From contig CAYPSN010000001.1 in NCBI GenBank assembly GCA_964413715.1, forward strand, positions 135,573 through 199,572: a stretch of 64,000 bases of DNA. The letters run 5' to 3'. A program made the translations under genes and the position numbers. Below, one piece after another: positions 3,826 to 23,064 of this stretch. The notes under the pieces are model-generated. The model saw only the letters and a program-made list of their open reading frames with translations, made no database searches and was not told where the DNA came from. The stretch's first letter is position 1. The number at the start of each line of letters is the position of its first letter. This stretch comes from an uncultured Candidatus Saccharibacteria bacterium. GTDB taxonomy: Bacteria > Patescibacteriota > Saccharimonadia > CAILAD01 > JADZBC01.

Positions 3826-3856
3826 GCCCCCGACCTAAGCCAGGGGCTTCTGTCAG
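3826..3856. terminator. bidirectional hairpin GAAGCCCCC...GGGGCTTC between convergent gene ends
   Basis: inverted repeat seen between stop at 3818 (+) and stop at 3853 (-). Confidence 0.5.
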
Positions 3857-4419
3857 GGGATGTTGCGAGTGTCTATGCTGCGTGAGTACGCTTCGAATAT
3901 CTCGTTTGCCTCCTTTCGAACCAAGCGCTCGGTATCACGCAACCGACGCTTGCTTACGACAGTGTGAACAATGTCGATCAAGATGCAGACTAGGGCAGCT
4001 ACAAAAATGGCGACCGTAACGACGACGTTCTCGCTCCTCGCCGATACTCTCAGCCAGCCTACCGCTACGCAGACCAGCCAAGACGTCCAGCAGGTGATCT
4101 TCACCCACAAAATTCGCTTTTCAGAACGGACGTACTGAGCAAGCAAGCGTCGTTGTTTCTGCTCCAGGCTGCCTAATCTGCTTTGCGCCTCTAGCACTGC
4201 CGTGCGTTGCTGCTGAACGTGCCTAACTCTAGCAGCAATTAAGGCATCGTCCTTGCGTGGAGCTTCTTCCAGCAGGTAGGTATCGAGATCACTCAAGATA
4301 CTGTCTGCCAGATTGCGCGCATTTCTGGTATTGTCGACTTCTTCGGCAAGCTGAAACTCCAGATCGATGTGCTGCCGAACACGACGAACACTTGGAAGCC
4401 AGCCCAAAATTCGCTTCAT
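3853..4419 (-). CDS. hypothetical protein with C-terminal TM segments
   Basis: ATG 4419 with GGGGGCAGC upstream; about 52% GC. Confidence 0.55.
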   Translation of the reverse strand: MKRILGWLPSVRRVRQHIDLEFQLAEEVDNTRNARNLADSILSDLDTYLLEEAPRKDDALIAARVRHVQQQRTAVLEAQSRLGSLEQKQRRLLAQYVRSEKRILWVKITCWTSWLVCVAVGWLRVSARSENVVVTVAIFVAALVCILIDIVHTVVSKRRLRDTERLVRKEANEIFEAYSRSIDTRNIP

Positions 4420-4982: not shown

Positions 4983-5043
4983 AGCCCAAGTATACCGCTT
5001 GTGCTTAATAAAATCGAGTAAATTATTTCAGGTACGAAAAGAG

Positions 5044-5087
5044 CCCCGGAGGGGAGTACAGGACTCTTCCGGGGCTCACGTGCGTAG
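5044..5087 (-). terminator. terminator of the AGAGCCCCG repeat family (GAGCCCCGG...CCGGGGCTC + TCTTTTCGTA on minus strand)
   Basis: hairpin plus U-tract read on the minus strand. Confidence 0.7.
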
Positions 5088-5653: not shown

Positions 5654-5871
5654 TAATATCCTCTCTGCTGCGGCGCAGAAAACATTGCGTTTTTAGACTT
5701 TCGTTCTTTTGAACTCATCAGCATAGAAACACATCTATGGAGTCTCCCGAGGGAGCCCACAATGAGCGCGCTTTTTGTTGCGCGCCCACCATGAGCGTCT
5801 CCTCAGGTGCCTGATTGTACAGGACTTTTTGGACGGATTAGCCGCCCTCTTCGCCTCTTGGGCTTGGGATG

Positions 5872-7605
5872 TCAGCGCTTGCCGAGGATGTGCAGCTCGA
5901 TCGTCGGCCTGATCTTGTTGTCGATCAGAGTGCGGTAGGTGTCCAGCTCGGCGTCCGTTGGGAAGTGCGCCAGCAGGGTGAGCAGCTCGATGGCCAACCA
6001 CTCCTGCAGGTGCATGATCCAGCGGTCGTTTCGAGCCGTGTGCCTGCCGTTGGTCTCGTCGAGCTTGACCCAGTCGGGGTGCCTGATGTTGAGCACCAGG
6101 GTTCCCGTGCTGGACTCGAACTCCCACAGGTGGGCGTTGCCAGCAAGCTCGTCGTAGCGGAACGACAGACCCTGGGAGCTTGCGCTCACAGAGCCCTTCT
6201 TGGTTCCACCCGACCCACCGGGATGCGGCTTGGTTGGGCGTTCGCCCTCACCGCTACCGCCGCCGGGCTTGCGCCCGCCGCTCGTGCCGTTGCCGCCACG
6301 AGTACCTGGCTCGTCATCGCCCGAGGTCTCACCCTCGGCCTTCTCGCTACCTCCGGGGTCCGGAGATGGTGCTCCGAAGCGCTTCCAGTCGGCGTCGGGG
6401 AATTGCTCGCTCAGTCGCTTGAGGCTCTCGTTGGCGAGGTCCTCGTAGCGGGAGCGATCCTGATCTTCCCGTTCCTCCTCGTAGAGCGCCTGCCCGACTT
6501 CCTCGTACCAGGTGCTCAGCACCAAGTACAAGCCGTGCAGGGGATCGTTGTACTTGAAGCTCTCCCGATCATCACGCAGGGTGATGTTCTCACATCGGAT
6601 GTAGCCCTCGAAGTACCCCGAGCAGAGCACGCTGGCAGCGTCGCTGACGAATTCCCAGAACTTGCCGGAGCGAGCCTGGTTGGCAAACGCCGTCATCGTC
6701 ACACCGAAGTCACCAACCTGGCGCATGACCTGCACCTTGCCCTCCCGCCTGCCGCGCTGTTGCGGCGCACGAAAGAGGGTGATGGTGACCTTGCCGGCGA
6801 TCGGGTCGGTGTACTCGACAACGTCGAGCGGATCTCCCTGGAACGACTGAGGTTCGATGTCACAAACCTCCTTGCTGCCGTTCGAGATCAGGGCGATGCG
6901 CACCTCGACACCCTTGCGCTGCATGGCGATGCCGAAGTTCTGACGGATCTCCGACACGAGCACTTCCAGGTCGATACGACTGACATGCCGGTCCTTGGTC
7001 AGGCCGTTCATCTTGATCATGGTCTGGTAGCGAACGCCGAAACGACCGCTCAGTTCACTGCGGAACTGCTGACCAGGATCCGGAAGCTTGTGGATCGACT
7101 TCCACGGGATGTGGAGCGTCTCGTGCTGAACTCGCACCTCTTCTTCTCGGAAGGTCCACACGTGGCCCTTCTTCGCACCACGTGCGATCGAAGCGAAGGT
7201 GTAGGTCTTGCACTTGTCGATTGGAGCCACGAGCCCCAAGCCGAACTCGCCCAGCTTGTCGGCATCCTTGATGGAGTTACCGATGTTGAGCAGAGCCTCG
7301 TTGAAGCCTGCCATCGTGGTGCCCTTGCCGTTGTCGAGCACGATCACCACTCGCTTGTCGAGATCGATACCGACGAAGATCAGGCTGGCGCCTTGATCGA
7401 TGCCGTTCTGAACCATCTCCTTGAGCGCTGCTCGCAGGGTGGGGTACCGATCTGCGTAGTACATGATGGCATTGCCTTGGTGGACACCGGCCGGGGAAGA
7501 CCCCGAACCGGCCTGGACAGCCTCAGCGGGTTCGCCGCTGGGGTCTTCTGTGGGTTCCTCAGCGGGATCGCCGCTGGGGTCATCTGTGGACTCAGCCACG
7601 GTCAC
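5872..7605 (-). CDS. GHKL-superfamily ATPase (HATPase_c_3; MORC/MutL-like ATP-binding fold) with acidic repeat N-terminus, Gly-rich linker and C-terminal domain
   Basis: N-box EMVQNGIDQ (ExxxNxxD), G1 box VLDNGKGTTMAGF (DxGxG), G2 box GEFGLGL present in order; 4-bp start/stop overlap with upstream gene; high GC. Confidence 0.75.
   Translation of the reverse strand: MTVAESTDDPSGDPAEEPTEDPSGEPAEAVQAGSGSSPAGVHQGNAIMYYADRYPTLRAALKEMVQNGIDQGASLIFVGIDLDKRVVIVLDNGKGTTMAGFNEALLNIGNSIKDADKLGEFGLGLVAPIDKCKTYTFASIARGAKKGHVWTFREEEVRVQHETLHIPWKSIHKLPDPGQQFRSELSGRFGVRYQTMIKMNGLTKDRHVSRIDLEVLVSEIRQNFGIAMQRKGVEVRIALISNGSKEVCDIEPQSFQGDPLDVVEYTDPIAGKVTITLFRAPQQRGRREGKVQVMRQVGDFGVTMTAFANQARSGKFWEFVSDAASVLCSGYFEGYIRCENITLRDDRESFKYNDPLHGLYLVLSTWYEEVGQALYEEEREDQDRSRYEDLANESLKRLSEQFPDADWKRFGAPSPDPGGSEKAEGETSGDDEPGTRGGNGTSGGRKPGGGSGEGERPTKPHPGGSGGTKKGSVSASSQGLSFRYDELAGNAHLWEFESSTGTLVLNIRHPDWVKLDETNGRHTARNDRWIMHLQEWLAIELLTLLAHFPTDAELDTYRTLIDNKIRPTIELHILGKR
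7523..7594 (-). repeat. tandem 36-bp direct repeat inside the 5' end of the GHKL ATPase gene (encodes acidic DPSGDPAEEPTE/DPSGEPAEAVQ repeats)
   Basis: cagcgggttcgccgctggggtcttctgtgggttcct / cagcgggatcgccgctggggtcatctgtggactcag. Confidence 0.8.
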
Positions 7606-8318
7606 CTTCCTTCTCGGTGTTGTGCACGAGCACGCTCGGAGTTGAGCGCGTTCAGGACTTGGGAAAGGTTGAACAAGCTGTTGGCCAGCTCGAACAACTC
7701 TTCGCCCGCCAGCTCACGCAGGCGGGAGCGCTGGGCTGGAGTCCAAGATTCCAGTGCCAGCAAAGCAAGGGGGGATACCCCTTTCACCATCGCTGCCAGT
7801 ACGGGCACCAGCACGTCGAATGCTGGCGCTTCCGCCAACACCTCTGGGGTTGCCTCTGGAAGCGGGGGAAGAGCACTTGGACTGAACGCACGCAGCTTGT
7901 CCTGCAGTCCGCTCTTGGCGTACTGCAAGCTTTCTCCGTACATCTCCTCCAGGCCCTCGACGCCCACAGCAGGCTGCATGGGCTCACGCCCACGCAGGAT
8001 CTGCAGCACGTCTTGGTTGTTCTTGACCCCGCTCAGCTGCTTGGCCTCATCGATCGTGATGACCGAGTAGGCGTACAGCTCGGCGAGGTACTGGTTGAAC
8101 TGCGGAATCCGAAGCTCGGGGATCTCATACCCGGCAGCCAGCACGAAGTGCCAGAGCCGAATCTCGAGGGTTCCCTGAGCCGGATTGCTGTTGGCTGTCC
8201 AGCGTTCCACGGAAGACCGCGCAGCCCCCACGAAATCACAGACGGGCTGTGTTCCATGATGGGTTACGAAGTCCGCCAGGGACGGCTGCAGCCACCGAAA
8301 TGGCTTGTGAACCTGCAT
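7602..8318 (-). CDS. hypothetical protein (238 aa), upstream partner of the GHKL ATPase
   Basis: ATG 8318 with AAGGAGCC RBS; longer track ORF start at 8378 lies inside promoter/operator sequence, so shorter start preferred; high GC. Confidence 0.6.
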   Translation of the reverse strand: MQVHKPFRWLQPSLADFVTHHGTQPVCDFVGAARSSVERWTANSNPAQGTLEIRLWHFVLAAGYEIPELRIPQFNQYLAELYAYSVITIDEAKQLSGVKNNQDVLQILRGREPMQPAVGVEGLEEMYGESLQYAKSGLQDKLRAFSPSALPPLPEATPEVLAEAPAFDVLVPVLAAMVKGVSPLALLALESWTPAQRSRLRELAGEELFELANSLFNLSQVLNALNSERARAQHREGR

Positions 8319-8387
8319 GGCTCCTTCTTGGGGGTTGATGGGTGGGTGGATTAGCGAACTAATCATCCCTTTTTTCAAAGGGCGATC

Positions 8388-9193: not shown

Positions 9194-9236
9194 ACGAAAA
9201 GAGCCCCGACTGGAGTCGTGGACTCTAATCGGGGCT
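9194..9236. terminator. bidirectional terminator of the AGAGCCCCG family
   Basis: GCCCCGA...TCGGGGC stem flanked by A/T tracts; between convergent genes. Confidence 0.7.
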
Positions 9237-12054: not shown

Positions 12055-12105
12055 ATGAAAAGAGCCCCGAGAAGAGCTTGGGGCTCTTTTCGGGGCTGAG
12101 GGTAT
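12055..12105. terminator. bidirectional terminator, AGAGCCCCG family (two nested GAGCCCC units)
   Basis: AAAAGAGCCCCGAGAAGAGCTTGGGGCTCTTTTCGGGGCT. Confidence 0.7.
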
Positions 12106-12687: not shown

Positions 12688-12733
12688 GACGAAAAGAGCC
12701 CCGAGGGGAGCAAGGGGCTCTCTTCGGGGCTCG
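12688..12733 (-). terminator. terminator, AGAGCCCCG family
   Basis: GAGCCCCGAGGGGAGCAAGGGGCTC plus TTTTCG on minus strand. Confidence 0.7.
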
Positions 12734-16915: not shown

Positions 16916-17027
16916 CACCGAACCACTCCTGCGGGAGGCATTACGCCACTCGAAGGGGTGGTGTTTTGTTTTACTTGCCTTGCATTTTGGCTTTCAAATT
17001 TCTACAATAGAGCCACACATTAACATA

Positions 17028-17189
17028 ACCTAGTATCGAGAGTGCAGTGAGAGATCTAGCTCTATGACCTGCCGGCAACCACTTTGTAAAAGAACGGTGC
17101 CCCTTCTAGCCCTGTGCGGGAAAGATAAGTGATAGACTTAACTCCTTTTTCCTGCCGGTGGCGGGATAGATACGAAAGGAGTTTTTTTT
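17028..17189 (+). promoter_or_regulatory. SAM-I (S-box) riboswitch with expression-platform terminator (CTCCTTTTTCC...GGAAAGGAG + T8) in the metK leader
   Basis: conserved S-box blocks recognisable: GAGAGTGCAGTGAGAGA, TATGACCTGCCGGCAACC, GGTGCC, GAAAGATAAG; directly upstream of metK. Confidence 0.65.
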
Positions 17190-18161
17190 ATGGCCAAACT
17201 AACTAACCTGCGAACCGCCGAAAGTGTCAGCCCCAAGCACCCCGACAAATTGTGCGATCAAGTCAGCGATGCAATATTGGATGCATACTTAGCCAAAGAC
17301 CCTACGTCCCGAGTAGCAATTGAAGCACTTGGTGGGCACGGTCAGCTGGTGGTGATGGGTGAGGTTACCAGCACGGCGACGATAGACATTGCCCCAATTG
17401 TGCAGCGCATTGTGGGCGACATTGCACTCAGTACCATCATCGTGGAGCAAAGCCCCGAGATTGCCCAAGGAGTCGATACTGGCGGAGCTGGCGACCAGGG
17501 CATAATGATTGGCTACGCTTGCAGCGAAACACCCGAAGCCTTACCGCTCGAAGTAGTGTTAAGCCGTCAGCTCAATCAGTATTTGTTTGAGCGCTGGCCG
17601 TTCGATGGCAAAACACAAATAACGTTGCGAGGAGACCAGATTGTTGCCGTGGTGGCGAGTTTTCAAAACGCAGCTACCGACGAATTGAAACAGGCAATTG
17701 CCGAGTGGCTGCAAAGCAAGCCCACGAGCAAACAACTTGCCATTCACGCCAATCCGGCGGGCGAATGGCGCCAGGGTGGATTTAAGGCTGATACGGGCCT
17801 GACTGGTCGCAAGTTGGTGGTGGATAATTACGGCCCGCGCATTCCAATTGGCGGTGGTTGCTTTAGCGGCAAAGACGCCAGTAAAGTCGATAGATCGGCC
17901 GCTTACATGGCACGTAAGATTGCGCTGGATTATCTTCGTAAGCGTGAAGCAAGTGAAGTATTTACTAGGCTTGCGTATGCAATAGGCTACGATCAGCCAC
18001 TTGAGGCTAGTATCATAATTGACGGCAAACAAGAAGCCGTGGTTGGCTATGACTTGTCGCCACGGGGCATCATTAAGCAGCTTGACTTAACCAAGCCACA
18101 GTTTGAAGCCACGGCGCGCTATGGGCATTTTGGCCATGGTGAATTTAGTTGGGAGAAGTAA
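17190..18161 (+). CDS. metK: S-adenosylmethionine synthetase (short form, 323 aa)
   Basis: SESVSPKHPDKLCDQVSDAILDAYL and GAGDQGIMIGYA signatures. Confidence 0.85.
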   Translation: MAKLTNLRTAESVSPKHPDKLCDQVSDAILDAYLAKDPTSRVAIEALGGHGQLVVMGEVTSTATIDIAPIVQRIVGDIALSTIIVEQSPEIAQGVDTGGAGDQGIMIGYACSETPEALPLEVVLSRQLNQYLFERWPFDGKTQITLRGDQIVAVVASFQNAATDELKQAIAEWLQSKPTSKQLAIHANPAGEWRQGGFKADTGLTGRKLVVDNYGPRIPIGGGCFSGKDASKVDRSAAYMARKIALDYLRKREASEVFTRLAYAIGYDQPLEASIIIDGKQEAVVGYDLSPRGIIKQLDLTKPQFEATARYGHFGHGEFSWEK

Positions 18162-18198
18162 CGAAAACGAAAAACCGCCCACCAGGGCGGAATTTCGC
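18162..18198. terminator. bidirectional terminator CCGCCCACCAGGGCGG flanked by A5/T-rich tracts; copy 1 of a ~50-bp repeat
   Basis: perfect 6-bp stem, loop ACCA. Confidence 0.7.
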
Positions 18199-18215
18199 CC
18201 CGACGAGCGGGAGAG
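18165..18215. repeat. repeat copy 1 (GAAAAACCGCCCACCAGGGCGGAATTTCGCCCCGACGAGCGG), about 80% identical to copy at 19658..19712
   Basis: aligned by eye. Confidence 0.6.
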
Positions 18216-18218
18216 GGT

Positions 18219-18635
18219 CTAGTCGACCGGAACTGCTTGAGGCGTCGCACTGCCTGCGAGCACGACGCTAACGTCTTGCTCGAGATCTCGGGACATTGCC
18301 ACGTCCAGCGGCAACTCGCCATTCCGAGGTGAGGCCAGACGAGAGCACACCCTGTCGTACAAGCTGGCCGCAGCCGGCCCATGCGGCGCCAGCAAGATCC
18401 GATTGTTGTCCGCCATCAAGGAGACGTGCACTCCCTGGAGTCCTCGACAGAGATGGTTCACCGCCGAATATCCGACAGGCGTCAGTCGGCGACCAACAGC
18501 CAGGTGATAGGCGGCAGATCCGAAGTCAGCTCGAGAAGTTGGATCGACGTAGAGAGGTTCTTCGCTGGTCAGAACCAGCTCACCACCCCCTTCTGAGCGG
18601 TCGTAGGCAGTAACCCGAACTTGCATTTCTCTCAC
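18219..18635 (-). CDS. GC-rich hypothetical protein (138 aa)
   Basis: ATG with GAGAAAGTGAGAGAA upstream; likely co-transcribed with 18657..18902. Confidence 0.5.
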   Translation of the reverse strand: MREMQVRVTAYDRSEGGGELVLTSEEPLYVDPTSRADFGSAAYHLAVGRRLTPVGYSAVNHLCRGLQGVHVSLMADNNRILLAPHGPAAASLYDRVCSRLASPRNGELPLDVAMSRDLEQDVSVVLAGSATPQAVPVD

Positions 18636-18656
18636 TTTCTCGTTGTGGGGTGGGGA

Positions 18657-18902
18657 TTACTCGTTGGTTGGGCCGAAGTAGCCCTCATGCTCAAGCAGCC
18701 CTTCGAACCGGGCCACTCCATCAAGTGCGTTCTTGCGCATCCTTGCGCTGCGGTAATGCAGCTCACGCTTGATCTTGGGGTCCAACCTACGCATGTAGTA
18801 CGGATCCGAGAGCACACGTGCGATTACCTCGTCGCACCACTGGGTACTCATCTTGCTCGGGTATACACCTTTCGGTACATAGCGAGCGGGCCCTGTAGCC
18901 AA
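18657..18902 (-). CDS. GC-rich hypothetical protein (81 aa), TTG start
   Basis: GAGGAAGAG upstream of TTG; start uncertain. Confidence 0.45.
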   Translation of the reverse strand: MATGPARYVPKGVYPSKMSTQWCDEVIARVLSDPYYMRRLDPKIKRELHYRSARMRKNALDGVARFEGLLEHEGYFGPTNE

Positions 18903-18961
18903 ATTCTCTTCCTCTAGTTCGATGATGAGCGGATTACTACATTACCATGAAATAAGTATTC

Positions 18962-19016
18962 TTACAATAACGAAAGCCGCCCCACGGGGGAGAGGCGACT
19001 CTCTGCCGTGGGGCGG
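18962..19016 (-). terminator. terminator CCGCCCCACGG...CCGTGGGGCGG + CTTTCGTTATTG (minus strand)
   Basis: 11-bp stem. Confidence 0.65.
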
Positions 19017-19032
19017 ATGGGTTGTACTTGGG

Positions 19033-19584
19033 TCAGTCGAGGGTTGCGTCGGTAGTGACAACCTCGTTGGCCTTGGCCACGAAGCGTCCGAGGACGGCCA
19101 GCCCCTTGGGGCCGACGAAGGATGCCCGACGTGCATGGCGAAGAACGCTGCGAACCTCATCCTGGAACTCGGAGAAGTAAAAGACCTTGGCCAAGGTAGC
19201 CAGGTCAACCTCCCTTGCGCCTGCCGTTCGTGCAGGCATGAGCGGGCTGTCGCTGCAGCTGAGAGGATCCTCTTGCACGATGCTGACAGACATCCAGATC
19301 GAAGTGATCACCTTGACCAGGTATCCGGTCTCGCGCGGCGAAAGATCGAGGTTGCGACAGATCCGCTTGCGGACCACTTCCGTGATCATCACGCCGGACA
19401 AGTCGATCACCCCTTCAGGCGGACCATCAGAGCCCTTCTTCTGCTTCTTGCCGGACTTCTTCTTCGAAGCCCCCTTCTTCGGCGGCGCCTTGAGCTCGGC
19501 CTTCTTGGAGAGCTTGGGCTTCTTGCCCTTGCCCTTCTTGTTCTTCTTGGCGCCCTTCTTGGGCTCCTTCTTCTTGCTTGCCAT
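19033..19584 (-). CDS. protein with about 50-aa lysine-rich (AKKA/KKG) N-terminal tail resembling histone H1 / actinobacterial HupB C-tails, plus unknown C-terminal domain
   Basis: MASKKKEPKKGAKKNKKGKGKKPKLSKKAELKAPPKKGASKKKSGKKQKKG; high GC. Confidence 0.55.
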   Translation of the reverse strand: MASKKKEPKKGAKKNKKGKGKKPKLSKKAELKAPPKKGASKKKSGKKQKKGSDGPPEGVIDLSGVMITEVVRKRICRNLDLSPRETGYLVKVITSIWMSVSIVQEDPLSCSDSPLMPARTAGAREVDLATLAKVFYFSEFQDEVRSVLRHARRASFVGPKGLAVLGRFVAKANEVVTTDATLD

Positions 19585-19623
19585 GCCGCGCTTCTTTCTG
19601 TAGTTGGACGGCTGAACTTCGCA

Positions 19624-19652
19624 ATAATACTATATTTTGCGTAATAAATCAA
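19624..19652 (-). promoter_or_regulatory. sigma70-like promoter TTGATT-17-TATTAT(TGCG) (minus strand)
   Basis: read directly. Confidence 0.55.
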
Positions 19653-19657
19653 TACAA

Positions 19658-19712
19658 CCGAAGAACCGCCCACCAGGGACGGAATCTCCGTCCGCAGTGA
19701 GCGGATTGTTTT
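19658..19712. repeat. repeat copy 2 (GAAGAACCGCCCACCAGGGACGGAATCTCCGTCCGCAGTGAGCGG)
   Basis: aligned by eye to 18165..18215; contains hairpin GGACGGAGATTCCGTCC. Confidence 0.6.
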
Positions 19713-19729
19713 GGCAGGGTAGAGCTCTG

Positions 19730-20374
19730 CTAGCGATACCGATAGCGCCTCAGCCGTCGCCAGTAGGGCCAACGCCGCTTGAACTTGCAGCGCAAGCACT
19801 TGCAGACGTTCCAGTGCGTCCGACTGAACCGCTGGCAACGCCAACAGTGGCAGTGGCTGTGTTGCCGCCTTGGAGCGTCGCGCCAGTTCTTCCAGCGCGA
19901 AAACAGTGAGTTGTCATACCAGTACAGCCGCAGCTTGAAGCACTTATACAAGCACCAGCCCACTAGCTGCTCGAGACACAAACCAAGCAGCAAGGATCCG
20001 AAAGCGATCGCTGGCCAGGAATTAGCCAACGTAAAGCTGAACTTTTCACCTCCGCCCAAGTCGAGCATCCACAGAGTGTAGAGCCCACCGAGCGAGATGA
20101 GCAGACCAACTAGCCCCAACCAGCGCAGCGAACTACGCAAGCGTACTTCGCCAGCCTGATCATCGGCCTGGTCGTAGAACGGCGTGCGTTCATCCTTGCT
20201 TGAACCGAAGTGATCAGTATGAGTCTCTTCAACGATCAGGCCCCGCAGCCTATCCGCCTGCGGTGCTGGCTGGGCCATGAAGGCTTCGAGCGTGACCTCA
20301 AGCACAGGGTCCTCGGTGCCAAAAACCTCCTCGACAGCTGCGAAGAGGTCGTCTGGTACTTCATCGTCAGCCAC
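19730..20374 (-). CDS. membrane protein with acidic N-terminus, 2 TM helices and Cys/Arg/Trp-rich C-terminal tail (CxCxxC x2); 3' part uncertain
   Basis: GTG start with AAGGAGGT RBS; promoter TTGATT-17-TATAAA at 20417..20445 (minus); the C-terminal 75 aa also reads open in another frame. Confidence 0.4.
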   Translation of the reverse strand: MADDEVPDDLFAAVEEVFGTEDPVLEVTLEAFMAQPAPQADRLRGLIVEETHTDHFGSSKDERTPFYDQADDQAGEVRLRSSLRWLGLVGLLISLGGLYTLWMLDLGGGEKFSFTLANSWPAIAFGSLLLGLCLEQLVGWCLYKCFKLRLYWYDNSLFSRWKNWRDAPRRQHSHCHCWRCQRFSRTHWNVCKCLRCKFKRRWPYWRRLRRYRYR

Positions 20375-20445
20375 AGCCGACCTCCTTGATTCGATGTATA
20401 GGAACGAATAGATAGATTTATACGCTGATGAGCAGCATAAATCAA

Positions 20446-20850
20446 CCTAAACAAAAAGGGCCGGGGGTGGGGAGACGAATCCCCCCACCGCACGACCTCA
20501 ACTCGGAGGGATCGGGCCCGCAGACCATCCCAGCGCTCAGCACGCCCCCTTCGGCCGAGTAGCGTACGCCGCCACCGGTGCGATACGCCTCCCGGCGTAT
20601 CTTCCACAATCGTGGTGAGTCCCTGTCTTTCCACTGGGCAGTGGGTGAGTATTTTAGCTTTCCGCTGCGCCTCTACTGGCACTTTTACCTAGCTTATCCA
20701 GCACCCGAGCCCAGATTTGGCTGCTTCGGACAGGGGTGGGGGTCTTTAGGCTAGGAGAGAATCTGAGATTCTCTTAGTTTGGCCGCAAGCAGCCTAGATG
20801 ACGATGGTCACCATGTGGGCTATATTACGCCTTTTTTGAGTAAGTTCAAG
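20446..20850. ncRNA. candidate structured non-coding RNA or long structured UTR, class unknown
   Basis: about 400 nt GC-rich, no credible ORF/RBS; dense perfect hairpins (e.g. GATACGCC-tccc-GGCGTATC, GAGAGAATC-tga-GATTCTC); bounded by A5/T6 tracts. Confidence 0.3.
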
Positions 20851-20854
20851 CCTA

Positions 20855-21193
20855 TTATTTATTATCGGACTTTTCGTACTCGCGAATCTTGCGTCGTGCG
20901 ATTGTACTACGAAGCAGGTTGTTGAGGAATGCAGCAATAATACCAATACCGATGAGGAGATAGAAGATAGTAAAGAGTTTACCTAAGTCTGTCTTGGGCG
21001 TAATGTCGCCGTAGCCGACAGTGGTAAGAGTCACCACGCAAAAATAAAGGGAATCAAGCCAGCGTAAACCTTCTACGTAATGGTAGAACACCACGCCAAT
21101 TGCCAATACAGACATTACGCCGAGAGCGATGAGGCGAAAGTTACGCCGAATAGCGTGGGCTTCTTTGGGTGTTAAATCATCTTTGGGTTTCAT
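20855..21193 (-). CDS. minimal two-TM potassium channel (KcsA-like)
   Basis: TTVGYGD selectivity-filter signature between two TM helices. Confidence 0.8.
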
Positions 21194-22409: not shown

Positions 22410-22482
22410 TAAATAACCTTAAGCGAAACGCCCACCTCCATGGGCGCTTCGTAAAGCGATGGAAGTGGGCGGGGAGCTGGCC

Positions 22483-22926
22483 CTAGTTGCGGACCACCTC
22501 GATGCACGGTTCCGTGACGGGGCCGACGACGAGCATCTGCGGCTCGCGGTAGACGCCGGTCGGGAGGTCGAGGAATGGGGCATCTGGCCCGTTGAGGAAC
22601 ATGTTGTCCTCGTCATCCCAGGATGGCTCATCTGCCAGCGCCATGGCGATCACCTCGTAGGTGTAGCCGGTCAGGATCTGGAAGTACTTCCGCACCGTCT
22701 CCTCGTCAGCTCGATCGTTGCCGTCAGCTTCGTTCATGAAGTCCGCCAGCTCGTAGCGATCTCGACAAGACTGGTTGTAGGTCACCCGCACGAAGTGCGT
22801 CATGCCGTTCTCGATGCAGAAGGACTGCACTCTCTCCGATGGAACGTCACCGATGACCAACAGCACGTGCTGGCTGGATCCCGAGTGGTCGGGAATGTCG
22901 ATGTATTCTCCTCCGGCTGCACCCAT
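22483..22926 (-). CDS. GC-rich hypothetical acidic protein (about 147 aa)
   Basis: start at MGAAGGEY (AAGGAGG 5 nt upstream) preferred over the longer track ORF; promoter TTGACA-17-TAATAT at 22998..23026 (minus). Confidence 0.5.
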   Translation of the reverse strand: MGAAGGEYIDIPDHSGSSQHVLLVIGDVPSERVQSFCIENGMTHFVRVTYNQSCRDRYELADFMNEADGNDRADEETVRKYFQILTGYTYEVIAMALADEPSWDDEDNMFLNGPDAPFLDLPTGVYREPQMLVVGPVTEPCIEVVRN

Positions 22927-23064
22927 GGCTGCCTCCTTGGTCCTGCTACTGGCTTCGGCCAGCACCTTACACACTGCGTGCAAGGAATTAGAGCATTATA
23001 TTAGTATAAATAACCTATTTTGTCAATGCTTACGGTTTTACAACAAGAGGAGTAAAATAGTGGT

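Follow-up and report, generated by a model that had tools for sequence, protein, structure and literature searches.

The two imperfect direct repeats located downstream of metK, here called R1 and R2, are in all likelihood two old paralogous Rho-independent terminators (estimated probability about 0.82). They lie in a stretch of 64 kb of DNA from an uncultured gut or rumen Saccharibacteria, which is referred to as the window. The comparison covered these 64 kb and 17-21 kb from each of five species-level relatives whose MetK is 80-92% identical (L095, L096/97, L099-101, L173, and L174). R1, R2 and, more distantly, a third hairpin between them (mid) appear to descend from one ancestral terminator module which was copied before these species split. 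The features of the region are listed in Table 1.

Table 1. Features of the metK region and related hairpins (positions in the window).
Feature	Position	Strand	Basis and remarks
Family B hairpins (four)	5041-5077, 9202-9236, 12063-12097, 12696-12732	-	16-mer search
Predicted terminator of GC-rich 120-aa ORF upstream of metK	16922..16973	+	terminator and hairpin scans; same two-tier architecture
SAM riboswitch	17030-17131	+	Rfam RF00162, 52.3 bits
Short-form metK	17190-18161	+	three S-AdoMet synthetase domains (Pfam); convergent with 138-aa gene
R1, predicted intrinsic-terminator hairpin of 138-aa gene	18163..18210	-	terminator scan, fold, orthologues, covariance model
138-aa gene	18219..18635	-	ORF; 60% G+C, R1 at its end
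81-aa gene	18657..18902	-	ORF; without terminator of its own
mid, third, more distant paralogous hairpin, predicted terminator of 183-aa gene	18966..19016	-	inverted repeat I1, fold, covariance model, orthologues
183-aa gene	19033..19584	-	Lys-rich disordered N-terminal tail (~residues 1-55) and helical C-terminal domain
Promoter-like site TTGATT-17-TATTAT for 183-aa gene	19624..19652	-	consensus scan; directly past R2 tail
R2, predicted intrinsic-terminator hairpin of 214-aa gene	19654..19706	-	fold, hairpin scan, covariance model, orthologues
214-aa gene	19730..20374	-	58% G+C; R2 at its end; outside the supposed insert
Weak hairpin-family relative	22419..22472	-	hairpin scan; 3' arm GGAGGUGGGCG and UUUCGCUU

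The initial annotation reported direct repeats of about 80% identity at 18165-18215 and 19658-19712. The repeats are real: the quoted strings map to 18169-18210 and 19660-19704, just within those coordinates, and are identical at 36 of 45 aligned positions (80%). Their likeness comprises only the hairpin and its tail (~48 nt), bounded by the base of the stem and by the end of the T-rich tail. A search for the repeat elsewhere in the window showed that a 19-mer common to both copies, GAANAACCGCCCACCAGGG, is found exactly twice in the 64 kb, against an expectation of 0.01 from shuffled sequences; CTGGTGGGCGG has two occurrences only. What similarity is left resides mainly in the G-rich 3' arm and the tail. 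This is the slowest-evolving part of the element, as a C/U change in the 5' arm keeps pairing with G, while pairs are lost when a G of the 3' arm becomes A. The R1 and R2 orthologues form separate groups, with identities of 71-90% within R1, 78-94% within R2 and 52-69% between the groups.

The three minus-strand ORFs which the initial annotation placed between the repeats are present, and independent gene callers assigned them to the same strand in related contigs. They had been described as a GC-rich insert. The interval indeed has a G+C content of 57%, but G+C is equally high outside both repeats, in the 214-aa gene on one side and, beyond metK, in its two upstream ORFs (59 and 63%) on the other, so the high-G+C block is not bounded by the repeats. 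The 138-aa gene is clade-restricted and probably co-transcribed with the 81-aa gene located 21 nt upstream. Homologues of the 138-aa protein adjoin metK in every relative (97, 57, and 32% amino acid identity), and the 81-aa gene is shared by the window, L095, L096, and L173 but missing from L099 and L174. The 183-aa protein was modelled by AlphaFold2 with a pLDDT of ~90 for residues 60-180 and below 50 in the tail, and searches of the PDB by sequence and by fold gave no match. The 214-aa protein has an acidic N-terminus, a hydrophobic middle part and a C-terminus rich in Cys, Arg, and Trp. Both proteins are clade-restricted, with only six (183 aa) and four (214 aa) protein clusters among 5.8 billion proteins. 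No Pfam, PHROG, NCBIfam, or PADLOC match was obtained for the 138-, 81-, 183-, and 214-aa genes or the two ORFs upstream of metK. Beside the array, an unannotated and very highly conserved stretch of ~365 nt (20450-20815) is a candidate structured RNA.

Promoter-like sites come after each terminator of the array. The site directly past the R2 tail may act as the promoter of the 183-aa gene, judging from its match to the consensus, and a site of the same arrangement (TTGATT...TATAGT) is found past R2 in L169 and L099. We propose that the row of small, clade-specific, GC-rich genes downstream of metK, all on the minus strand, would be expressed as three separate transcription units: the 214-aa gene ending in R2, the 183-aa gene ending in mid, and the 81-aa and 138-aa genes ending in R1. 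Each unit would have its own promoter directly past the preceding terminator and, at its end, a long GC-rich RNA hairpin of two tiers with a U-rich tail, where RNA polymerase would be released.

That each repeat serves as a terminator hairpin was already part of the initial annotation, and geometry, strand specificity and conservation agree in predicting minus-strand intrinsic-terminator hairpins for both copies. R1 starts 8 nt past the stop codon of the 138-aa gene and lies 13 nt beyond the stop of metK, which is on the other strand. Its stem (18210-18175) consists of 15 contiguous pairs with the loop AAAUUC and is followed by the tail UUUUUCGUUUUCG at 18174-18163 (U-rich tract 3' of the stem, UUUUUCGUUUU). 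R1 folds with -32.9 kcal/mol (z -2.9) on the minus strand; the fold of the plus strand is a different one (z -1.7). R2 starts ~25 nt past the stop codon of the 214-aa gene and has a two-tier stem (10 outer pairs, a C·C mismatch, 7 inner pairs and the loop GAU; -32.6 kcal/mol, z -4.2) with the tail UUCUUCGGUUGU, a weaker U-tract than that of R1. The third hairpin, mid, sits within the supposed insert and starts 16 nt past the stop codon of the 183-aa gene; it is built from an outer stem (CCGCCCCACGG/CCGUGGGGCGG), an inner stem (GAGAG/CUCUC) and the tail CUUUCGUUAUUG, and folds with -34.1 kcal/mol (z -5.4). The stems of all three hairpins have 15-17 pairs, with 11 G-C pairs. With a covariance model trained on R1/R2, scores of 65.7 bits for R1, 66.1 bits for R2 and 21.5 bits (E 4e-4) for mid were obtained.

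In all relatives the orthologous hairpins of R1, R2, and mid likewise sit shortly after stop codons in sense orientation. Among eight distinct R1/R2 orthologues, all outer-stem cells (64/64) are paired in the minus-strand sense, compared to 38-61% when the partners are slid. Double compensatory changes occur at two outer-stem pairs (A-U/G-C and C-G/U-A), and 13 outer-stem cells contain G·U, which on the plus strand would be A·C mismatches. R1 orthologues with compensatory changes were found in L095, L099, L096, L173, and L174, and R2 orthologues behind 214-aa homologues in L099, L173, L174, L172, L169, and L170/171, with the 3' arm and tail of R2 unchanged down to 40% protein identity of these homologues. 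In the mid orthologues of L099, L096, L173, and L174, pairs have changed from C-G to U-A, and G·U changes occur as well. On the strength of these sequence comparisons, termination in vivo would be expected at R1, R2, and mid. An Rfam search of 18100-20900 at E ≤ 1 gave no match, so neither the R1/R2/mid hairpins nor the conserved spacer (20450-20815) can be assigned to a curated RNA family.

The 80% identity of R1 and R2, which includes unpaired bases flanking the loop, argues for their common descent rather than convergence without proving it. Under convergence the two would be unrelated and alike through selection for one stable design, with a CCGC.../...GGGCGG clamp, a two-tier stem and a UUUCGUU tail. 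We regard this as improbable. One half of a hairpin does dictate the other half, and mid, the hairpins at 16922-16973 and 22419-22472 and the terminator of a 149-aa gene in L096 have the same architecture, with the same GG(U)GG(C)G plus UUUCG end, at low similarity. However, identity between R1 and R2 extends to unpaired positions around the loop (GAAAUUCCG versus GAGAUUCCG) and to 21 of the 23 bases of the tail and 3' arm, a shared 19-mer is hardly expected by chance, and the covariance model gives R1 and R2 66 bits compared to at most 21 bits for all other terminators in the 64 kb, although it was trained on R1/R2. No significant similarity was detected among the array genes or among the genes associated with a second hairpin family (family B), so recent duplication of the genes does not account for the similarity of the hairpins.

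R1, R2, and mid are referred to as family A, and the four copies found at 5-13 kb of the window as family B. The minus strand contains four copies of the family B 16-mer, with 0.06 expected. Its copies are located behind non-homologous genes, indicating that related terminators are a recurring feature of this genome. In the 64 kb, family A comprises two strong and two to three weak copies. The hairpin upstream of metK (16922..16973) has weak sequence similarity to R1/R2 and scores 18.3 bits with the covariance model; its orthologues in L096, L174, and L099 score 22-28 bits. The hairpin at 22419..22472, predicted to terminate a GC-rich 166-aa ORF (22483-22983), scores only 10.4 bits (E 0.5) and is therefore a resemblance and not a proven family member.

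The recurrence of such hairpins could also mean that they act as REP/MITE-like small elements or recombination hot spots, copying themselves behind new genes or marking the shuffling junctions of ORFan gene units, which we consider very unlikely. Families A and B (the latter with four copies) do sit behind genes without detectable homology. In addition, two strains with 99.5% identity up to and including the 214-aa homologue part ways exactly 15 nt past the R2 stem, and an insertion of a sigma-70 gene in L096 starts ~10 nt past the mid tail. Breakpoints right past a terminator are expected anyway, because the rearrangements that survive are those leaving gene, terminator and next promoter intact. 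Moreover, every copy is in sense orientation with a U-tail like a plain terminator, each family has only two to four copies in the sequence covered, the annotated 21 kb revealed no RAYT/IS200-type gene, and neither viral contigs nor more distant Saccharibacteria loci yielded any family copies. The broader proposition, that the two-tier hairpins of families A and B are not passive terminators but a small module with duplicative or recombinogenic activity, either REP/MITE-like or serving as a preferred site of crossover, has slightly better yet still poor odds. If true, the hairpin would be the means by which new GC-rich genes specific to a lineage are captured, supplied with a terminator and moved from one intergenic site to another. 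This would explain both the strain-level rearrangements ending within 10-15 nt of a hairpin and the near-identical terminators of unrelated ORFan genes.

The initial annotation had likened the repeats to an attachment or target site that was duplicated when a small element inserted. In such a model, the convergent metK and 214-aa genes once had a single bidirectional terminator between them, into which an element with the 138-, 81-, and 183-aa genes integrated, and the terminator was duplicated as attL/attR or as a long target-site duplication. Two direct copies do bracket three co-oriented ORFan genes without homologues outside this clade, and a convergent gene pair with one common terminator is a plausible target. 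This origin is nevertheless very doubtful, as no empty site was found, the hairpins travel with their own genes and no recombinase gene is located nearby. An empty site, with a single repeat copy between metK and the 19730-20374 gene, is absent from the five species-level relatives and from at least 21 conspecific contigs. The latter have the same gene order, and the relatives keep the order metK-R1-138aa ... mid-183aa-R2-214aa with orthologous hairpins. In L096, R1 and the 138-aa homologue adjoin metK, and neither R2 nor the 214-aa gene is found within 8 kb. Conversely, R2 is a standalone terminator of the 214-aa homologue in L170/L171, where the neighbour is a convergent prephenate dehydrogenase gene and the enclosed genes are missing; altogether, the 214-aa gene and R2 were found in three different downstream contexts. 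The content between R1 and R2 varies by single-gene gains and losses (81-aa gene, sigma-70 gene) and not as a unit, a third paralogous hairpin lies within the supposed insert with weaker relatives outside, and G+C is steady across R2 and past metK. No integrase or transposase is present within ~10 kb (Pfam table for 7190-28161 of the window), and an att site in a tRNA gene was rejected since the window contains no tRNA gene. Transposon target-site duplications are direct repeats of 2-15 bp which abut terminal inverted repeats and come with a transposase; the R1/R2 interval contains no terminal inverted repeats and no transposase, and a duplication of 45 bp far exceeds this size. An insertion that predates the common ancestor of these species is conceivable but improbable.

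Wider searches were also carried out. A scan of a genome collection with MetK yielded nearest species representatives with at most 69% identity and no shared synteny, which makes them useless for the empty-site comparison. A JGI metagenome scan with the pattern AACCGCCCACCAGGG(N)CGGAAT gave one unrelated match, without hairpin or homologous genes. Scans of viral contigs with a 15-mer, the family B 16-mer and the R2 19-mer gave chance matches or nothing, and thus no evidence of phage origin.

Reading R1 and R2 as paralogous terminators removes a false mobile-element lead: in compact Saccharibacteria genomes, direct repeats can simply be terminators of common origin. The candidate phyla radiation (CPR) is a group of uncultured ultra-small bacteria, and R1/R2 would be a clear case, backed by covariation, of intrinsic terminators of unusual length in a CPR lineage; a literature search on terminators in CPR bacteria returned nothing. 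The analysis also describes a conserved gene row next to metK whose members evolve fast, are GC-rich and are restricted to this clade.

Several known systems share features with the array. Like integron cassettes with attC sites, it consists of small co-oriented ORFan genes with an imperfect palindrome behind each. An integron array has IntI and attI, promoterless cassettes, and attC sites with RYYYAAC...GTTRRRY cores. Here, neither IntI nor attI was found, each unit has its own promoter-like site, RYYYAAC/GTTRRRY cores are absent at 18160-18225 and 19650-19715, and housekeeping genes (metK, a K+ channel gene, and chorismate mutase) are interspersed. REP/BIME elements are likewise imperfect palindromes of 35-45 nt, intergenic, past stop codons and in families behind unrelated genes. 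REPs have tens to hundreds of copies in both orientations, are often clustered and are linked to a RAYT transposase, whereas the R1/R2 family has few copies in the 64 kb, always in sense and followed by a U-tail, and the annotated 21 kb showed no RAYT. As in attL/attR pairs of phages, ICEs, and genomic islands, two imperfect direct repeats of ~45 bp surround a few co-oriented genes without assigned function. Unlike attL/attR, R1/R2 lack a recombinase, a tRNA/tmRNA target, an empty site and a compositional boundary, segregate with outside-facing genes and not with the enclosed block, and have a third copy inside. The recurrence of a specific motif in terminator hairpins behind different genes is reminiscent of Neisseria DUS and Pasteurellaceae USS, which occur as inverted repeats in terminators and are 10-12-mers with hundreds to thousands of copies per genome (PMC2397512, PMC3630211). 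In contrast, CTGGTGGGCGG has just two copies in the 64 kb, and nothing ties it to DNA uptake. R1, R2, and mid resemble Rho-independent terminators in their GC-rich stem-loop with a U-rich tract behind it, in their location 8-25 nt past the stop codon, in their sense orientation and in a structure kept across species by compensatory and G·U changes. They differ from typical members of this class in their unusually long, two-tier stems, and from independent terminators in that the neighbouring R1 and R2 are recognisably paralogous.

The two similar sequences flanking the genes downstream of metK align with 36 of 45 positions identical and share the 19-mer GAANAACCGCCCACCAGGG, which occurs exactly twice in 64 kb (0.01 expected from shuffles), in agreement with the 80% identity given in the initial annotation. 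The three minus-strand ORFs between them, also annotated initially, are real and were called on the same strand in related contigs by independent gene callers. The shared stretch of ~48 nt runs from a stem base to the end of a T-rich tail. On the minus strand, R1 reads CCGCUCGUCGGGGCG-AAAUUC-CGCCCUGGUGGGCGG then UUUUUCGUUUUCG and begins 8 nt past the stop of the 138-aa gene, and R2 reads CCGCUCACUG-C-GGACGGA-GAU-UCCGUCC-C-UGGUGGGCGG then UUCUUCGGUUGU and begins ~25 nt past the stop of the 214-aa gene. Both are textbook intrinsic-terminator shapes, as had been proposed for each repeat, and the hairpins agree with every sequence-level criterion for such terminators; we infer that they terminate transcription in vivo. 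A third hairpin (mid), with a similar outer stem and the tail CUUUCGUU, ends the 183-aa gene within the supposed insert and was matched by a covariance model trained on R1/R2 orthologues (21.5 bits, E 4e-4). Several stem G·U pairs turn into A·C mismatches when read on the plus strand, where the fold is different and less significant, which indicates that the hairpins act as minus-strand RNA. No U-tract follows R1 on the plus strand, and R1 therefore does not obviously serve metK as a bidirectional terminator.

Coordinates of the features in the window
Feature	Position	Strand
SAM riboswitch, metK leader	17030-17131	+
R1, aligned part	18169-18210	-
138-aa gene	18219-18635	-
81-aa gene	18657-18902	-
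mid hairpin	18966-19016	-
183-aa gene	19033-19584	-
Promoter-like site TTGATT-17-TATTAT	19652-19624	-
R2, aligned part	19660-19704	-
214-aa gene	19730-20374	-
GC-rich block about metK	~15.9 kb to ~20.85 kb	
Region of candidate ncRNA	20375-20855	-
Candidate ncRNA transcript	roughly 20815 to 20450	-
Terminator hairpin of candidate ncRNA	20500-20457	-
166-aa ORF	22483-22983	
Second terminator family (hairpin scan)	5041-5077, 9202-9236, 12063-12097, 12696-12732	-
Weaker second-family copy	3827-3859	-
GC-rich island, 60-63% (L001 1-1177)	~5870-8370	-
Strain-level replacement (L001 17547-18679)	24730-27391	
blastn match gap in metK-truncated contigs	17296-17574	

When eight distinct R1 and R2 orthologues are aligned, 64/64 cells of the eight outer-stem pairs are base-paired, compared to 38-61% with slid 3' partners; double compensatory changes occur at two pairs, and G·U at 13 cells. 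The orthologues form separate similarity groups (71-90% identity within R1, 78-94% within R2 and 52-69% between), so the two hairpins were already distinct before these species split. Substitutions gather in the loops and in the 5' arm, which is rich in C and U; the 3' arm, rich in G, is fixed, because G pairs with both C and U, and the residual similarity of R1 and R2 is therefore concentrated in the 3' arm and tail. The analysis demonstrates the geometry, strand specificity, position and covariation of the hairpins and their orthology with the adjacent gene. From these we infer common descent of R1 and R2; their convergence on one design is unlikely. The most probable reading (about 80%), drawn from sequence, is that the minus strand carries three tandem transcription units, each ending in a terminator hairpin, and that R1 and R2 descend as old paralogues from a single terminator module. 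Each unit would start from a promoter-like site directly past the preceding terminator (e.g., TTGATT-17-TATTAT), and the long hairpin with its U-tail would terminate transcription and probably shield the mRNA 3' end.

Conspecific contigs (97-100% identical, at least 21 with the 183-aa protein) all share the gene order 214-183-81-138-metK, and their R1 and R2 are identical. Related species were found via MetK homologues and then their contigs. L095 (MetK 92%) is arranged as in the window and L173 (80%) has all four genes. L099-L101 (81%) read metK-R1-135aa-mid-188aa-R2-214aa-conserved spacer-K+ channel-chorismate mutase (CM)-prephenate dehydrogenase (PDH), without the 81-aa gene. L174 (81%) reads metK-R1-137aa-sigma70(+)-mid-175aa-R2-214aa, and L096/L097 (82%) read metK-R1-136aa-81aa homologue-sigma70(+)-mid-183aa homologue, with neither the 214-aa gene nor R2 in the next 6-8 kb. 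No empty site with a single repeat was found among these relatives, the content between R1 and R2 varies gene by gene (81-aa gene, sigma-70), and the hairpins are neither gained nor lost together with the enclosed genes, which speaks against the duplicated attachment or target site suggested initially. Among 5.8 billion proteins, homologues of the 214-aa gene fall into only four clusters. An R2 orthologue follows every inspectable homologue, and its 3' arm and tail CCGUCCCUGGUGGGCGGUUCUUCGUU stay the same even where protein identity drops to 40%. In L170/L171 this unit adjoins a convergent PDH gene, and in L169 it is followed by 183- and 138-aa homologues; these contexts and L096/L097 assign R1 to the 138-aa gene and R2 to its 214-aa counterpart. 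L169 and L170 are 99.5% identical through the 214-aa homologue, and homology stops 15 nt past the R2-type stem. The stretches compared (L169 1-1246 versus L170 1-924, also L171) share a segment with sigma-70 and the 214-aa homologue; beyond it L170/L171 continue into a convergent PDH-CM pair, a junction that independent assemblies of two JGI samples both yielded. Such breakpoints beside hairpins, also seen at the sigma-70 insertion, are suggestive of a duplicative or recombinogenic hairpin module, but they are expected anyway if only rearrangements keeping whole transcription units survive, and we consider such a module very improbable. An insertion scar predating the clade is equally hard to credit.

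MetK, a short form of 323 aa, has a SAM riboswitch (RF00162, 52.3 bits) in its leader, and its closest relatives are from Candidatus Saccharibacteria/Nanosyncoccaceae metagenome-assembled genomes of animal guts. The window is a mosaic of housekeeping genes (45-52% G+C) alternating with small ORFs (57-63%) lacking any protein-family match. The GC-rich block about metK breaks only at the riboswitch and metK and takes in the 214-aa gene past R2 (58%) and, upstream of metK, two ORFs (59%, 63%); no compositional boundary therefore falls at the repeats, which do not delimit the GC-rich insert of the initial annotation. The 138-, 81-, 183- and 214-aa genes are all clade-restricted. The 183-aa protein starts with a Lys-rich, disordered tail and ends in a helical domain predicted with confidence (pLDDT about 90); neither its sequence nor its fold has a PDB match. 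Its 'HupB-tail-like' label holds for tail composition and nothing beyond. The 214-aa protein has an acidic N-terminus, a hydrophobic segment and a highly unusual Cys/Arg/Trp/Lys-rich tail (…CHCWRCQRFSRTHWNVCKCLRCKFKRRWPYWRRLRRYRYR) of ~75 C-terminal residues. Elsewhere, a GC-rich island has genes for a 577-aa HATPase_c_3 protein and, next to it, a 254-aa protein without family match, which may be a horizontally acquired defence-type pair. Gene calls in conspecific contigs L085/L176 (NODE_1603) and L182 shorten metK to a 170-aa product and omit the 138-aa gene, with the same spacing and a blastn match gap, reflecting either an assembly error or a real metK lesion. At a site of strain-level replacement the window has a GC-rich 159-aa ORF and a 545-aa ThyX (Thy1) gene (62-65% G+C); the 98.5% identical strains L001, L085 and L086 have a tRNA_bind gene and a 175-aa gene instead, and ThyX also follows the ABC transporter in the more distant L099 and L174.

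A hairpin scan revealed a further terminator family, likewise long and two-tiered, (G)AGCCCCGA-AGAG-CC...CUC..UCGGGGCU(C)-CUUUUCGU, in near-identical copies (as DNA, (G)AGCCCCGA.AGAG.CC...CTC..TCGGGGCT(C) then CTTTTCGT). Its 16-mer occurs four times on the minus strand (0.06 expected), each copy sits behind a different GC-rich ORFan gene with no detectable homology among these genes, and matches in viral contigs were at chance level. Weak relatives of R1/R2 terminate a 120-aa ORF upstream of metK and the 166-aa ORF. Similar terminators behind different small genes are thus a recurring property of this genome, and R1/R2 call for no special insertion event.

The by-product of greatest potential is a candidate novel structured ncRNA between the K+ channel and 214-aa genes, a region without ORF call or Rfam match (E<=1). 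At least 10 strain contigs with 1.5-2.7% divergence elsewhere share it at 100% identity. Identity to three further species is 94%, 91% and 83%, compared to ~78-84% for the genes on either side. RNAalifold on 4 sequences gave 129 pairs, 11 with compensatory double changes. The candidate comes with a promoter-like site of its own (TTGAAC-17-TAATAT) and with a terminator hairpin plus UUUUUGUUU; the MFE z is -3.4. L174 and L172 lack it at the corresponding position.

Three other identities were considered (att sites, target-site duplications, integron attC sites), and the hairpins fell short of the criteria applied to each. In the comparison with REP elements, the 64 kb contain two strong and two or three weak copies of the R1/R2 hairpin. 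Terminators bearing motifs are known from the uptake sequences of Neisseria and Pasteurellaceae (PMC2397512, PMC3630211), but the copies here are far too few for such a role to be claimed. Our literature search found no paper linking intrinsic terminators and Saccharibacteria.
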